A stretch of 42,513 bases of DNA, from IMG/VR virus record IMGVR_UViG_3300048605_000012. One strand, given 5' to 3'. How positions within the stretch are numbered: position 1 is the stretch's first letter; every line of letters starts with the position of its first letter. The translations under genes and the position numbers were made by a program. The notes beneath the pieces were generated by a model. It did no database searches. It saw only the letters and a list, made by a program, of their open reading frames with translations, and was not told where the DNA came from. Origin of the DNA: a virus. Shown here piece after piece: positions 37,900 through 42,513 of the stretch.

Positions 37900-38244
37900 A
37901 TGGACGTTTTGGGTAAAATAAAAGAGCTGGCTAAACAGAGGAATATTAGCCTTGCTGAGTTGGAAAGGCGTACCGGGTTATCAAGCGGTTCAATTACTAA
38001 ATGGGGAAAAAGCGCTCCATCTGTAGACAAATTAGCGAAAATCGCTGAATATTTCCATGTGTCCACTGATTATCTTTTAGGAAGAACAGATAACCCACAC
38101 ATGGGTATGTCCGAAAAACAAAAAGAATTGACCATAGAAGAAGCTTTAAAATCTGTTATGAGTTATAACGGTAAAGAAGTTTCTGAAAATGACCGTGAAG
38201 TATTAGAGAGGATTGCAAAAGCATACTTGGACGGAAAAATATAA
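37900..38244 (+). CDS. cI-like XRE-family repressor (114 aa)
   Basis: The HTH is ISLAELERRTGLSSGSITKWGK. It is followed by an ImmA-like gene. Confidence 0.8.
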   Translation: MDVLGKIKELAKQRNISLAELERRTGLSSGSITKWGKSAPSVDKLAKIAEYFHVSTDYLLGRTDNPHMGMSEKQKELTIEEALKSVMSYNGKEVSENDREVLERIAKAYLDGKI

Positions 38245-38256
38245 GAGGGTGTTTGT

Positions 38257-38613
38257 TTGGATGCTCAGATTTTAGAAATTGTTGAAAAGTTGAACATAAC
38301 AATAGTTTATGATGAGTTTTTGGAAGATCATGGAAAATATCTTCCGATTGTAAATATTATCGCATTGAATAGTAAGTTGAATGATTTTGAAATGAAGAGG
38401 GCTTTACTTCATGAATTGGGTCATGCTTGTGAGGATCAAGATAATTACGAGCTTTATAAACTCTCATTTGTCTTAAAGTCAAAAATGGAATATGCTGCAA
38501 ATAGATTTATGATAAGCTATTTCACCAGCGAATACGATGATATCTATAATTACAGTCAATTAATAGAAGAATTTAGTATTGGGATGGGCTACGATGTTAA
38601 ATATGCAAGATAA
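38257..38613 (+). CDS. ImmA/IrrE-like zinc metallopeptidase (118 aa, TTG start)
   Basis: Carries the HELGH motif (LLHELGHACED). The pairing with an XRE repressor is classic. Confidence 0.75.
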   Translation: MDAQILEIVEKLNITIVYDEFLEDHGKYLPIVNIIALNSKLNDFEMKRALLHELGHACEDQDNYELYKLSFVLKSKMEYAANRFMISYFTSEYDDIYNYSQLIEEFSIGMGYDVKYAR

Positions 38614-38703: not shown

Positions 38704-39645
38704 ATGAAAAAAGTCGTACCGTGCTTATTGTTTGTTGGTTTAATAATGACCGGATGTTCTAATAATGAAGAAAGTACAACTCCCCCAACTGATACAACTT
38801 CTCAAACGACTTCTGTTTCTGAAGAACAGAAAGCTGACTTCGAATATGGGAAAATCATTACTGACGAGTTTGAACTTACTTATAAAAATTCTGAAATAGT
38901 TAAAAGTCCGTCTGAAGATGGCTATGGGTTATATATAACGTATTCATTAAAGAATACTTCAGATAACAATATCACACCTATTGATATTATTAATGATTAC
39001 GTTTTATTTAAACAAGAGAATGAAACTTCTGAGGTTGATCTCGATAACACCTACTATAGCTTAGATGCATTTGGATCAACAGATGATGTCGAATCATATA
39101 ATGAGCAAGTTGATAAAGAAAACTCTCGTTCTGATGAACTGTTACCCGATAAAACCGTGGACATAATAGAGACTTACTCTCTGGACAACTTAGATTTCCC
39201 AGTTAAAATGATAGCTATGTATGAAGATAAAGAAATAGGTATTTATGAAATTGATTTGACTGAATTAGAAAAGCCTGAAGAAACAAAATCTTTAGCCAAT
39301 ACAAATAATCCCAATGAAGATAGTTCCTATAACGAAGGCCTTTCCGATATGCCAGCAAGCTGGCAAGAAGGTGAAGCTGAGTGGGAAAAAGCAAAGGCTG
39401 AAGGCTGGACAGCCGAGGATTGGGAAGAAGCAGTCAGAGCTAGTGAAAACGAAACTTATGTAGTAGGTTCCGGTCAATATGAAGATTCATTTAATGGTAG
39501 TCAAGCTGAGCAAACAACATTGCCTGAAGGAACTTCTGAAAATGCAAGACGTATATATAATGAAATAAAAAGTATTCAAGATAGAGAATTAACATCTGGT
39601 GAAATTCAAACATTAGAAGCAATCGAACAAGGCTATTACGAGTAA
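38704..39645 (+). CDS. Lipoprotein (313 aa) in the lysogeny module, candidate superinfection-exclusion factor
   Basis: Signal peptide with the lipobox LIMTGC, a Thr/Ser-rich linker, a beta-rich domain and an acidic Trp-rich C-terminus. Confidence 0.7.
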   Translation: MKKVVPCLLFVGLIMTGCSNNEESTTPPTDTTSQTTSVSEEQKADFEYGKIITDEFELTYKNSEIVKSPSEDGYGLYITYSLKNTSDNNITPIDIINDYVLFKQENETSEVDLDNTYYSLDAFGSTDDVESYNEQVDKENSRSDELLPDKTVDIIETYSLDNLDFPVKMIAMYEDKEIGIYEIDLTELEKPEETKSLANTNNPNEDSSYNEGLSDMPASWQEGEAEWEKAKAEGWTAEDWEEAVRASENETYVVGSGQYEDSFNGSQAEQTTLPEGTSENARRIYNEIKSIQDRELTSGEIQTLEAIEQGYYE

Positions 39646-39747: not shown

Positions 39748-40887
39748 ATGTGGAGCGAATCTTTAGGCAACGGAAGATATAAGTTTATAGAAAGATACAA
39801 AGATCCCTATACCGAAAAATGGAAAAAGACAAGTACTGTTCTAACAAGTGATTCTTCCAGAGCCTGGAAGAATGCACAGAAAATATTAGACAAAAAAATA
39901 GAGGAAGCTTTAAGTAATTATGATAAATCTGACATCACTTTCAAGGAGCTTTACGAAGAGTGGTTTGTTTATTATCAACAACATGTAAAAAGAACAAGTT
40001 GGACCAAAGTTCCAAAGATGATGAAACATATTCAAAAAGTTATATCTGACGATGTTCTTGTTCGAAATATAGACGAGAATATGATTCGTAATATTACAGA
40101 AAAAATGTATACTTTCGGTGACCTATCCTTGAATTATACGAAACAGACCAAGACGACCCTTTCAATCATGTTGAATTATGCAGTTGAGAAAAAGTATATT
40201 AAACAAAATCTAGCGCTGAATGTCAAAATTCAAAGAAAAAAAGCTGAAGAAGAAAAAAGAAAAAAGAACATGGATGAAAAATACCTTGATCAAAGCGAAA
40301 TGACAGAGTTGCTTGTATATATGAGAAAATCTACTAAAAGATTATTGCACGCTAACATTGCAGAATTGTTATATTTAACAGGCCTAAGATACGGAGAGTT
40401 ACAGGCATTACAAGTAAAGGACTTTGACGGGAGTACTTTGGATATTAACGGCACATTGGACTATTCTTTCTTAAAAATGGCAGATGCTATAAAAACTTCA
40501 CCTAAAAATATCTATTCTAAAAGAATAGTTTCTTTGCCTAATAGAGCAGTAAAAATTGTTAATGAAATCATAGAACACAACTCTTTAGTATTTGGCTCCC
40601 AAAGTAACGAGGATTATATATTTAAATCATCTAGAGGTACTCCGTTGTCTCTCCATAGCTTTAATATGGTACTGCATAGAGTTCAAGACGAACTAAAATG
40701 GGATAAAAACTTATCCTCACACATATTCAGACATAGTCATATTTCTTTACTAGCTGAATTGAATCTTCCTTTAAAAACCATAATGGAGAGAGTCGGACAT
40801 TCCGATGCCAACACGACTTTATCAATTTATAATCACGTGACCAAAAAATCCAAAGAGCAGGTTATCGATCGATTAAACAATTTGTAA
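39748..40887 (+). CDS. int: Phage integrase, tyrosine recombinase (379 aa from MWSESLGNGRYKF)
   Basis: N-terminal arm-binding-type domain. Catalytic motifs are GLRYGEL ... HIFRHSHISLL ... VGHSDANTTLSIYNHV. Confidence 0.9.
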   Translation: MWSESLGNGRYKFIERYKDPYTEKWKKTSTVLTSDSSRAWKNAQKILDKKIEEALSNYDKSDITFKELYEEWFVYYQQHVKRTSWTKVPKMMKHIQKVISDDVLVRNIDENMIRNITEKMYTFGDLSLNYTKQTKTTLSIMLNYAVEKKYIKQNLALNVKIQRKKAEEEKRKKNMDEKYLDQSEMTELLVYMRKSTKRLLHANIAELLYLTGLRYGELQALQVKDFDGSTLDINGTLDYSFLKMADAIKTSPKNIYSKRIVSLPNRAVKIVNEIIEHNSLVFGSQSNEDYIFKSSRGTPLSLHSFNMVLHRVQDELKWDKNLSSHIFRHSHISLLAELNLPLKTIMERVGHSDANTTLSIYNHVTKKSKEQVIDRLNNL

Positions 40888-40906
40888 TTTGCCCCTTTTT
40901 TGCCCC
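40888..40906. repeat. 19-bp direct repeat TTTGCCCCTTTTTTGCCCC, copy 1 (attP arm-type site candidate)
   Basis: Identical to 41103-41121. Each copy holds two TTGCCCC units 11 bp apart. Confidence 0.85.
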
Positions 40907-40936
40907 TTTTGTATAAAAATTAACATTAAACAAACA

Positions 40937-40968
40937 AAAGAACCCCTATAAATAGAGGTTCTTTTATT
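40937..40968 (+). terminator. Terminator downstream of int
   Basis: Hairpin GAACC(C)CTA-taaa-TAG(A)GGTTC followed by TTTTATT. Confidence 0.6.
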
Positions 40969-41102
40969 ATAACTACATCATGCCGCCCATCTAAGATTGT
41001 CTGACACACTCATTTCTACCAGTATAAAAATGCCTATATAATAACCTTTTGATCAATTTAATTTATAAAAACAATTCAACTAGTTCGAACTAATAAAGTT
41101 AT

Positions 41103-41121
41103 TTTGCCCCTTTTTTGCCCC
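41103..41121. repeat. 19-bp direct repeat TTTGCCCCTTTTTTGCCCC, copy 2
   Basis: Identical to 40888-40906. Confidence 0.85.
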
Positions 41122-41140
41122 CTATTCTTTATTTAATTCC

Positions 41141-41169
41141 TTTACAAAAAGAACAAACGTTCGTATACT
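41141..41169 (+). promoter_or_regulatory. Near-consensus sigma-A promoter (TTTACA-17-TATACT) of the five-gene accessory operon
   Basis: Hexamers at 41141-41146 and 41164-41169, with an exact 17-nt spacer. Confidence 0.65.
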
Positions 41170-41200
41170 GAGGAAGAAGTAAACAAGAGGAGTGGTCAAA

Positions 41201-41521
41201 TTGAAATATAATGATTTTAAAAACCTTTTGGAAAACCGTCTATCTGGTTACGAAGTATTTATGCAAAAAGCCGAGGAATTCCAAATTGCTAAGAATAAAC
41301 TGCGTTCCGGAAAGGCTAAGTGGAACGATAAAAAAGTTAACAAAGCAATTAACGGTATGTGGGATCAAGCTGCACAAAATATCTATCAGACTGTTAAAAA
41401 TATGGATAAGATTCCAAACAGTCGATCCTTAGACCCTTACAATGATTGGCTTAAATTTATGGAAAGTAGAAATCTATTTGAAGTACTGTCAGATTCTCTT
41501 GCTGATGTCGAAATGGAATAG
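41201..41521 (+). CDS. Accessory operon gene 1, hypothetical (about 107 aa; TTG at 41201 or GTG at 41192)
   Basis: RBS GAGGAG lies 8 nt before the TTG. No family was recognised. Confidence 0.6.
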   Translation: MKYNDFKNLLENRLSGYEVFMQKAEEFQIAKNKLRSGKAKWNDKKVNKAINGMWDQAAQNIYQTVKNMDKIPNSRSLDPYNDWLKFMESRNLFEVLSDSLADVEME

Positions 41522-41532
41522 GAGCGATTGAT

Positions 41533-41823
41533 ATGCAAATACCATTGGCGCATCAAAGAACCTATGCACTCGAAAGATATTACTACGAGTTTATCGAAAG
41601 AATGGGTCCCGCCCACTTACTTTACGATCAGTTTGTTCGGACGATGGAAAACACCGGCAAACCTTTTTTTACCGTCCCTTCGGGCTATTCAAAATATTCT
41701 GAGGTGCTAGCTTTTGTTTTTAAAAAAGACGGAGATAATTATCTGTTCGATCACGTTAGAACGCAAGACAAGATTCTTCGAAAATACGACCCTAACATAA
41801 AATACAAACCGGGCGGGAACTGA
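41533..41823 (+). CDS. Accessory operon gene 2, hypothetical (96 aa)
   Basis: GGAG RBS, tightly spaced after gene 1. Confidence 0.6.
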   Translation: MQIPLAHQRTYALERYYYEFIERMGPAHLLYDQFVRTMENTGKPFFTVPSGYSKYSEVLAFVFKKDGDNYLFDHVRTQDKILRKYDPNIKYKPGGN

Positions 41824-41824
41824 A

Positions 41825-42091
41825 ATGAATCTTATTACTCAATACGAGCAAGGCTACCTACCTATTTCTGAGTTCATAAATGAATTTCCAGACAGTATTT
41901 CTGAGTCACAGGAAGCTTTATACGGCGCAAGATGTATTGAATTTTATGTCGCTGTCGCATTAGGTAAAACAGATTGTTGCTATCATGTACAACGCTATGG
42001 AGGCGATTGTTATGAAATCGATGAAAGGCTATGTATCGAAGATACGAGTACTGAAGATGAGCAAGGCCCCTTTGGTGCGGTTTTCGCTTGA
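41825..42091 (+). CDS. Accessory operon gene 3, hypothetical acidic Cys-rich protein (88 aa)
   Basis: The start is 1 nt after the gene 2 stop. Confidence 0.6.
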   Translation: MNLITQYEQGYLPISEFINEFPDSISESQEALYGARCIEFYVAVALGKTDCCYHVQRYGGDCYEIDERLCIEDTSTEDEQGPFGAVFA

Positions 42092-42287
42092 TGAAGTGAA
42101 CTGTTTGATCGCAGCTCATAGTCTGAACTTTTTGGCAGATGTAGATGAAGGAATGGAAATCATTGTCGCTGGTGATTTTAAAGATCGCAAACAGTTTTTT
42201 GTGAAGAAGTATTCGGTGATTGGTAAGACGAAGATCATGATTGAATTTGAAGCAATGAACAAACAACTAATTGCACCTTATAACTGA
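42012..42287 (+). CDS. Accessory operon gene 4, possible OB-fold-like small protein (91 aa from MKSMKGY)
   Basis: The ATG at 42012 lies 8 nt after GGAGG. It overlaps gene 3 by 80 nt in another frame. Confidence 0.5.
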   Translation: MKSMKGYVSKIRVLKMSKAPLVRFSLDEVNCLIAAHSLNFLADVDEGMEIIVAGDFKDRKQFFVKKYSVIGKTKIMIEFEAMNKQLIAPYN

Positions 42288-42321
42288 AAATGATATTGTA
42301 ATTATAATGGAGGCGATATCA

Positions 42322-42513
42322 TTGGAAAACATTGTTAACAGCTCTTGGGAATACTTTAAAACAGAAGCAACTTTAGATCCTTCTAAGGTAGGAAAATGGA
42401 TGATTTTTTTCGATTTTCCAACTAGCCGAGAAGTTATGAAGAATTATTGTAGAGAAGCTGTTGAAAAAGAAATTATACCTTCCTCTAAATTGAGTAATAG
42501 ACCTAATCCAGCA
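42322..42513 (+). CDS. N-terminal part of accessory operon gene 5 (wraps to 124..360 of the window)
   Basis: The TTG at 42322 lies 8 nt after GGAGG. The frame runs without a stop to the window end and is identical to bases 1-123. Confidence 0.6.
   Translation, partial: MENIVNSSWEYFKTEATLDPSKVGKWMIFFDFPTSREVMKNYCREAVEKEIIPSSKLSNRPNPA
42391..42513. repeat. Terminal direct repeat copy 2 (identical to 1-123)
   Basis: Base-by-base identity with the first 123 nt of the window. Confidence 0.95.

Follow-up and report, generated by a model that had tools for sequence, protein, structure and literature searches.

IMG/VR virus record IMGVR_UViG_3300048605_000012 is a stretch of 42,513 nucleotides (nt), the whole of which was analysed and is called the window here, and its last part raises a question: what do five small plus-strand genes (g1 to g5) do that stand behind a promoter of their own between the phage attachment site (attP) and the lysis genes, and that run from position 41141 over the end of the stretch to position 360? 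An earlier note on this DNA proposed that their products act together in defence, anti-defence or lysogenic conversion. Here, we describe a computational analysis that supports this interpretation in part, and we consider it probable that the cassette is a LexA-repressed, damage-induced accessory operon at the host-proximal end of the prophage, modular in build, with a g3-g4 core tied to translesion synthesis and with one cargo gene. The window itself is best read as a temperate siphophage genome, from the Enterococcus casseliflavus/gallinarum group.

The promoter is of the sigma-A type (TTTACA-17-TATACT, plus strand, 41141-41169). The bare match proves nothing, because the region holds seven consensus-like promoter sites where 6.5 are expected by chance. 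Within its 17-nt spacer and abutting the -10 hexamer lies a match to the LexA (SOS/Cheo) box, AGAACAAACGTTCG (41150-41163), which agrees at 13 of 14 positions with CGAAC-N4-GTTCG, the site that LexA binds in Bacillus subtilis and Staphylococcus aureus (PMC9578287 Table 1; PMC4234289), and which is the only site in the 42.5-kb window with at most one mismatch to it. Upstream regions of 67 distinct related cassettes from viral contigs were aligned, and the promoter is conserved base for base in 44 of them (39 unique sequences), whatever the first gene; most of the other 23 have no upstream sequence. Across the 39 unique promoters, the -35 hexamer, GAAC, GTTCG and the -10 hexamer are invariant, and the N4 between the half-sites takes 12 forms. 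The block TTTACA-N4-GAAC-N4-GTTCG-TATAMT is kept whether g1, g2 or c5, an alternative head gene of sister cassettes, comes next, and it is kept despite unrelated integrases, attP flanks and upstream sequence. The promoter contains, then, a conserved dyad of LexA-box sequence, from which we infer that LexA would repress the operon in a lysogen and that DNA damage would induce it. The earlier note, which had missed the box, had suggested lysogenic conversion; an operator in the promoter predicts silence in the unstressed lysogen and induction by DNA damage, the reverse of classic lysogenic conversion, and makes constitutive expression in the prophage state unlikely.

Mapping of the open reading frames and of the promoter bore out the promoter-headed, tightly packed plus-strand unit that had been drawn between attP and the lysis genes, with some corrections. 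The optional head gene g1 (41201-41521) starts at a TTG, with GAGGAG 8 nt upstream and an ATG at the same position in relatives, and encodes 106 amino acids (aa) rather than the 107 first given; the sizes of the other four products, 96, 88, 91 and 142 aa, stand. They are encoded by g2 (41533-41823), g3 (41825-42091), g4 (42012-42287, with GGAGG-N8-ATG) and g5 (42322-42513 then 124-360, with a TTG start), all on the plus strand, and the last of these occupies a variable cargo slot. Spacings from g1 to g5 are +11, +1, -80 (an overlap) and +34 nt; of the tight coupling first described, the 80-nt overlap is confirmed, and there is one 1-nt gap rather than several. Since positions 1-123 of the window are identical to 42391-42513, the window is a circularly permuted genome of 42,390 bp, and the continuation of g5 across the 123-nt terminal overlap to position 360 is real. 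The late genes and the lysin gene (397-1350) lie on the minus strand, convergent with the cassette, as had been stated. Between g5 and the lysin gene is a hairpin terminator common to both (361-394, 15-bp stem); the scan scored it on the minus strand, and the T-tail on the plus strand is weaker (TTTCGTTT). Five plus-strand genes in operon layout at a prophage end are what is observed, and g5 is presumably co-transcribed with g1 to g4.

A search for the exact promoter pattern, with each bacterial species represented by one genome, found at least 120 copies, almost all of the sites listed being in Lactobacillales; genera with the promoter are Enterococcus (including E. faecalis), Vagococcus, Carnobacterium, Desemzia, Pediococcus, Ligilactobacillus and Listeria. 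Behind it stand at least 32 Y-family polymerases (Pfam IMS 2.5e-28, IMS_C, IMS_HHH), at least 35 members of the divergent YolD-like family c5 (7 of 19 match PF08863, best E 1.4e-4), at least 23 g4-like proteins and at least 15 g2-like proteins. These genes form operons of the order polymerase-YolD-g4 (L134, L162, L186, L196), g4-YolD-polymerase (L123) and YolD-g4 (L139), and g2-g4 operons also occur; most of the g2, g4 and polymerase operons have no similarity to the integrase or lysin of the window phage within 8 kb. Because the same promoter heads Y-family polymerase and YolD genes, the element appears to behave as an SOS operator of Lactobacillales, and g2, g3, g4 and the alternative head genes would be part of the LexA regulon, in the company of Y-family polymerase and YolD operons. 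Such LexA-box operons point to damage tolerance rather than to defence or anti-defence. YolD together with UvrX or YqjW is the proposed LexA-controlled counterpart of Pol V in Gram-positive bacteria, and is partly prophage-borne (PMC6511836). The scan also yielded at least 10 copies of a conserved 72-aa membrane protein (MKSMRR...) behind a promoter with two tandem perfect boxes, as in L133, L143, L166, L190 and L203 (Enterococcus villorum, mundtii, durans and others), and this protein may be an SOS-controlled inhibitor of cell division, like SosA or YneA. In three Macrococcoides loci (L117, L142, L216) a 413-aa protein stands behind the same SOS-box promoter; judged by eye, its N-terminus, with an FAGxGG motif, resembles that of a DNA cytosine methyltransferase.

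Do the five genes belong together? Co-occurrence was judged in the 40 of the 67 viral-contig cassettes that have enough flanking sequence, and all five genes are found together in just one, a near-identical relative. In this set full-length g3 is accompanied by g4 in 26 of 26 cases and g1 is always followed by g2 (6/6), and g2 occurs without g1 in 24 of 30; there are 11 cases of g2 without g3-g4 and 7 of g3-g4 without g2, and none of the cassette genes is present in all the phages compared. A second set, 65 distinct metagenome loci seeded with g4 proteins, holds YolD-like, g3 and g4 in 14 loci, g2, g3 and g4 in at least 11, g1 to g4 in at least six, and a Y-family polymerase with g3 and g4 in three; g5 is present in two in any architecture, and all five genes are present in two. 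An SOS promoter lies 5' of the first gene in nearly all untruncated multi-gene loci of this set. In the sister prophage L325 (2413-4249) the order is integrase, SOS promoter, a 451-aa Y-family polymerase, g3, g4 and then lysin, so a translesion polymerase fills the slot that g1 and g2 occupy in the window. The core of the cassette is therefore the overlapping g3-g4 pair, the one inseparable part. Its head slot is exchangeable, being filled by g1 and g2 in the window and by YolD-like or Y-family polymerase genes in sister prophages and chromosomes, and so is its tail slot, which carries g5 in the window and Abi_2, TIR or lipoprotein genes elsewhere.

Among relatives, the slot after g4 is filled by Abi_2, a LysM lipoprotein, other lipoproteins or a weak HEPN-like protein. 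In the E. faecalis phage EFC-1 (L234:1699-2883), an integrase gene is followed by an SOS-box promoter, a g4-like gene preceded by the near-consensus box CGAACATGCATTCG, a gene annotated 'TIR protein' and the lysis genes, which is the layout of the window with a different cargo. The Abi_2 and TIR genes, the position at a prophage end converging on lysin, and the presence of the g5 family inside type I restriction-modification (R-M) operons and beside a GmrSD enzyme would all suit a coherent five-gene system, as first proposed. We nevertheless hold such a system to be decidedly unlikely: all five genes co-occur in only 1/40 and 2/65 distinct loci, PADLOC (PADLOC-DB 2.0, E<=1) matched none of the five proteins, the LexA operator speaks against steady expression from the prophage, and g2, g3 and g4 recur in LexA-box operons with translesion polymerases, mostly without a window-like integrase or lysin within 8 kb.

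The core pair was resolved by its codon-position diversity. By g4 codon position (1, 2, 3), nucleotide diversity across the 80-nt overlap (42012-42091) is 0.12, 0.05 and 0.24, a pattern similar to the 0.11, 0.08 and 0.38 of the rest of g4; read in the g3 frame, the order in the overlap is reversed (0.24, 0.13, 0.05). Wobble thus follows the g4 frame, from which it follows that the g4 start at 42012 is real and that the 26 C-terminal residues of g3 owe their sequence largely to overprinting. The g3 stop codon is shifted in 18 of 45 relatives, and the N-terminus of g4 is conserved to the same degree as the remainder of the protein. On this pattern the overlap appears to be overprinted, with the downstream gene dominant, leaving residues 1-62 of g3 as a conserved module and 63-88 as overprinted on g4. 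A programmed frameshift that would fuse g3 to g4 was considered and judged unlikely, g4 being in the +1 frame with its own GGAGG-N8-ATG and treated as a separate product by gene callers. The idea that g3 is a Cys-rich acidic DNA mimic loses ground with the overprinted tail, although residues 1-62 are still acidic on their own (isoelectric point, pI, 4.25).

An acidic g3 (pI 4.05 in full) beside a basic g4 (pI 9.4), both small, overlapping and co-occurring in 26 of 26 cases, could also be a type II toxin-antitoxin pair, with an acidic antitoxin and a basic toxin that stabilise the prophage or abort infection. We regard this as highly unlikely, because Pfam, NCBIfam and PADLOC gave no toxin-antitoxin or defence family match, an 80-nt overlap with a relaxed g3 tail and a variable stop position is atypical, and g4 also stands without g3 directly behind YolD-like or Y-family polymerase genes at LexA-box promoters. 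The hub gene of the cassette family is g4, with 444 clusters at 90% identity, nearly all of the 120 listed being of motile enterococci; more distant relatives are present in other Lactobacillales, on megaplasmids beside DUF5960 genes and in Latilactobacillus prophages. Its only PHROGs match is to a family of unknown function. It is predicted to be beta-rich, and single members of its family match tRNA_anti families of the oligonucleotide/oligosaccharide-binding (OB) fold below threshold; the OB-like fold first suggested for g4 is plausible but unproven.

Of the remaining head genes, g1 has its sole match in phrog_7823, a PHROGs family of unknown function, and g2 (pI 9.1) is a member of the DUF5960 family (PF19385, 36.7 bits against a gathering cut-off of 24.1, E 5.5e-9), so that the earlier statement that g1 to g3 have no family does not hold for g2. 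In other genomes g2 is itself the first gene behind the SOS promoter. A Pfam search of g1 to g5 matched only g2, and the searched literature yielded no mention of DUF5960. No Pfam match of YolD-like kind was found among g1 to g5, and only the alternative head c5 of the sister cassettes is YolD-like; the g4 profile aligned to that of c5 with an hhalign probability of 0.2%. Single-sequence PDB searches with all five proteins and profile searches of PDB for g5, g4, g2 and the YolD-like family gave nothing significant, and NCBIfam and PADLOC gave no usable matches for the cassette proteins. Matches of g2 to TAF1 (PDB, E about 0.003) span 40 residues only and were treated as chance.

The position at a prophage end, beside the host junction, was confirmed by three integrated copies in metagenome contigs (L108, L110, L111), in which host genes (PTS EIIC, GH1, GntR and GT2) are followed by the junction, the cassette and the lysin gene. 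By blastn, L108 is 100% identical to the window starting at 40974, which sets the junction there and places the operon about 230 bp from it in the lysogen; no tRNA was found at the L108 host junction. The phage side of the attachment site (40974..41140) is preceded by a terminator-like hairpin on the plus strand, 3' of the integrase gene and at the upstream edge of the attP region (40933..40968, 17-nt arms, 88% complementary). One copy of a 22-nt direct repeat, TTTGCCCCTTTTTTGCCCC, lies within the phage side; its two copies (40885-40906 and 41100-41121, 95% identical, 215 nt apart) bracket the attachment region and may be arm-binding sites of the integrase. Similar pairs, GCCCCTTTTTTGCCCC, precede the promoter in relatives with related integrases. 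Near relatives of the phage are the Enterococcus gallinarum phages EG-TP1 and phiEG37K, and exact copies of g1 with close relatives of g2 and g4 are annotated in genomes of E. casseliflavus, E. gallinarum and E. innesii, as 'hypothetical protein' or as 'DUF5960 family protein', the latter being the RefSeq name of members of the g2 cluster.

Adjacency to attP, small basic products (g2 and g4) and an expression predicted to depend on SOS would fit an excisionase, or recombination directionality factor, made only on induction. The same proteins, however, accompany integrases that are 24-37% identical and unrelated attP flanks, they occur in operons without similarity to the integrase of the window phage within 8 kb, and none matched an excisionase or HTH_17 family, which makes this explanation scarcely credible.

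A relay from SOS to prophage induction deserves more weight, and we rate it as unlikely rather than remote. It supposes that one of the cassette products, under LexA control, acts as an antirepressor or activates the ImmA protease, and so inactivates the ImmR-type repressor in the manner of Tum in phage 186 or GfoA/GftA in Gifsy prophages. The lysogeny (immunity) module at 37900-38613 consists of an ImmR-like HTH_3 repressor (37900-38244, 114 aa), for which Pfam marks helix-turn-helix (HTH) families only, and directly after it a short ImmA-like M78 peptidase (118 aa). From its length and these Pfam matches, the repressor has no evident S24 self-cleavage domain, and the only LexA box of the phage is in the cassette promoter, outside the immunity genes. 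A precedent exists in the Gifsy prophages: away from their immunity region they keep a unit under LexA control, with a terminator before it, and one of its products is an antirepressor (PMC3121763). Against the relay, identity between phages is 75-90% for the cassette proteins and only 31-45% for the repressors and 24-37% for the integrases, and specific partners would be expected to co-vary; the same families stand in polymerase operons without similarity to the integrase or lysin of the window phage within 8 kb, and no cassette gene is universal among phages. Conservation of the cassette far exceeds that of the integrases and repressors that accompany it, and for this reason both the excisionase and the specific-antirepressor ideas were set aside. 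Between the ImmA-like gene and the integrase gene lies a gene for a 313-aa lipoprotein-like protein (DUF5067, 38704-39645), which is likely a lysogeny-expressed moron and possibly acts in superinfection exclusion.

The cargo gene of the window, g5, was modelled with AlphaFold2 (pLDDT 81, pTM 0.79). The top Foldseek match of the model in PDB is human Bles03 (1ztp, E 5e-4, TM 0.53), followed by eIF4E/4EHP (TM 0.5-0.59), with phosphothreonine lyases ranking lower, and in the BFVD viral library a DUF1917 protein comes first. Pfam gave nothing for the window protein itself even at E<=10, so it falls short of the PF08939 (Bles03) gathering threshold; in its family 14 of 61 members match PF08939 below threshold (best E 0.0016). 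The model thus assigns g5 a Bles03/eIF4E-like fold, and the resemblance to Bles03/DUF1917 first suggested for it stands at the level of fold and not as formal Pfam membership. Homologues above 40% identity are rare (6 clusters), and a profile search gave 330 representative clusters, with G24, K25, W26, K56, F108 and K109 near-invariant in the family. Some members are fused to SNF2 helicase, RNase_T exonuclease, HNH or RNase HII domains, and homologues that stand alone are located in type I R-M operons between hsdS and hsdR, beside a GmrSD enzyme or at prophage ends. Homologues in the R-M and GmrSD settings are found in L241 (4001-4414), L245, L243 and L254, and upstream of a lone homologue in L006 (380-517) a long inverted repeat (ACGATTACAATATTGTGA ... 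TCACAATATTGTAATCGT) takes the place of the SOS promoter. Most likely g5 is cargo in its own right, a protein that binds nucleic acids or nucleotides and whose family is otherwise tied to restriction and defence loci, and a defence-type role for g5 alone is possible.

For the LexA-controlled accessory operon that we favour, the following course is proposed. In an unstressed lysogen, the LexA protein of the host would occupy its box in the promoter spacer (41150-41163) and keep the operon silent. Once DNA is damaged, cleavage of LexA, stimulated by RecA, would open the promoter, and transcription would then run through g1 to g5 towards the shared terminator. The g3-g4 pair, probably with g2, would be accessory or regulatory parts of the Pol-V-like machinery by which Gram-positive bacteria tolerate DNA damage, or would modulate the SOS state, and the prophage would make these proteins at the moment of induction. 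We infer a role of g3-g4, with g2 or YolD-like heads, in damage tolerance or SOS-state modulation.

Several points weigh against this reading. LexA control is deduced from the identity, position and conservation of a motif. The window cassette holds no polymerase or YolD-like gene, so its link to translesion synthesis is one of guilt by association, and the g2 profile, like that of g4, aligns to the YolD-like c5 profile with an hhalign probability of only 0.2%. Most g2 and g4 loci of the genome scan were picked through the promoter pattern, and this selection inflates the association with the promoter in that set, although the protein-seeded sets agree. For g4, the AlphaFold2 model (all-beta with one short helix) is of low confidence (pLDDT 63) and has no Foldseek match below E 0.08, which is too weak for a fold assignment, and PF00436 (SSB) matches in 2 of 19 family members (best 1.4e-4) are below the Pfam threshold. 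Co-transcription of g5 with g1 to g4 is assumed solely because no terminator was found between them, and none of the free-standing g5 homologues elsewhere, in R-M operons, beside GmrSD or at prophage ends, has a LexA box.

A bolder proposal, which we offer tentatively and as possible rather than probable, is that g3-g4 with interchangeable DUF5960 or YolD-like adaptors form an unrecognised Pol-V-like mutasome component of Lactobacillales, or a polymerase-independent SOS effector, and that prophages spread the pair free of a polymerase and so tune host mutagenesis or RecA/SOS signalling at induction; alternatively, the pair could be the missing link between DNA damage and the inactivation of ImmA/ImmR-type repressors. 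LexA-controlled prophage loci and prophage-borne YolD/UvrX operons are already known. Not described in the searched literature are this family of promoter-headed cassettes at the ends of enterococcal prophages, its invariable core of overlapping g3 and g4, and the recurrence of that core beside genes for Y-family polymerases, YolD-like or DUF5960 proteins. It is not settled which subunits the Gram-positive Pol V counterpart contains, and YolD has only an inferred role in it (PMC6511836); g3-g4 are new candidates for a part in it. A much-used moron site of enterococcal prophages seems to be wired to the host SOS response and not to lysogeny, which would alter the timing at which cargo is produced, including defence-like g5, Abi_2 and TIR proteins, and the cassette could offer phages with ImmR/ImmA repressors a route to sense DNA damage. 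Enterococci are important carriers of antibiotic resistance, and prophage-borne modules of damage-induced mutagenesis would be relevant in that setting.

Compared with known systems, g5 is closest to Bles03/DUF1917 (PF08939; PDB 1ztp, 2q4k), since its model superposes best on 1ztp and next on eIF4E/4EHP and its family gives recurrent sub-threshold PF08939 matches. Bles03 belongs to the eIF4E/phosphothreonine-lyase fold; the lyase proposal is only computational and names equivalents of SpvC K136, Y158 and H106 as its residues (PMC4159009). Unlike Bles03, g5 is a 142-aa stand-alone bacterial or phage domain found in R-M and nuclease- or helicase-fusion contexts. The earlier note had likened the cassette to the Listeria anti-CRISPR (acr) loci, and it does share with such moron or defence hot spots the position between lysis module and attachment site and a variable tail slot, with Abi_2 or TIR in relatives. 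Its head and core genes differ in standing at a LexA operator and in being related to SOS and translesion operons. Listeria-type acr genes are accompanied by an AcrIIA1-like HTH autorepressor, and the parallel fails here: Pfam, which matched only g2 (DUF5960), revealed no HTH gene of this type among g1 to g5, and there was no significant PDB sequence match and no PADLOC match.

The LexA-controlled units of Gifsy (a dinI homologue and an antirepressor), Tum of phage 186 and AntC of N15 (PMC3121763) resemble the cassette in having a LexA operator in a promoter outside the immunity region, a terminator-like hairpin upstream, several small proteins and a phage repressor that is apparently not of the self-cleaving type. 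They differ from it in that there is no sequence relationship, the host here is Gram-positive with an ImmR/ImmA module, and the cassette genes do not co-vary with repressor type. The streptococcal cassette has the order hdiR-umuC-ORF3-ORF4, as Varhimo et al. reportedly described in 2007. It is similar in joining a Y-family polymerase and small uncharacterised open reading frames under a damage-responsive repressor in Lactobacillales, and unlike in being regulated by HdiR and not by LexA; this SOS mutagenesis cassette is cited in PMC8565304. The yolD-uvrX and yqjX-yqjW operons of Bacillus subtilis, in whose analysis (PMC6511836) g1, g2 (DUF5960), g3 and g4 of the window go unmentioned, differ in that the window cassette has no polymerase or YolD-like gene and that g2 has no detectable YolD-like similarity. 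As is predicted for the cassette, they are small-protein operons, damage-inducible, behind a Cheo-box promoter, and can be prophage-borne, uvrX-yolD residing on prophage SPbeta (PMC6511836), and the sister cassettes of the window hold a YolD-like gene or a Y-family polymerase in the very slot that heads g3-g4.

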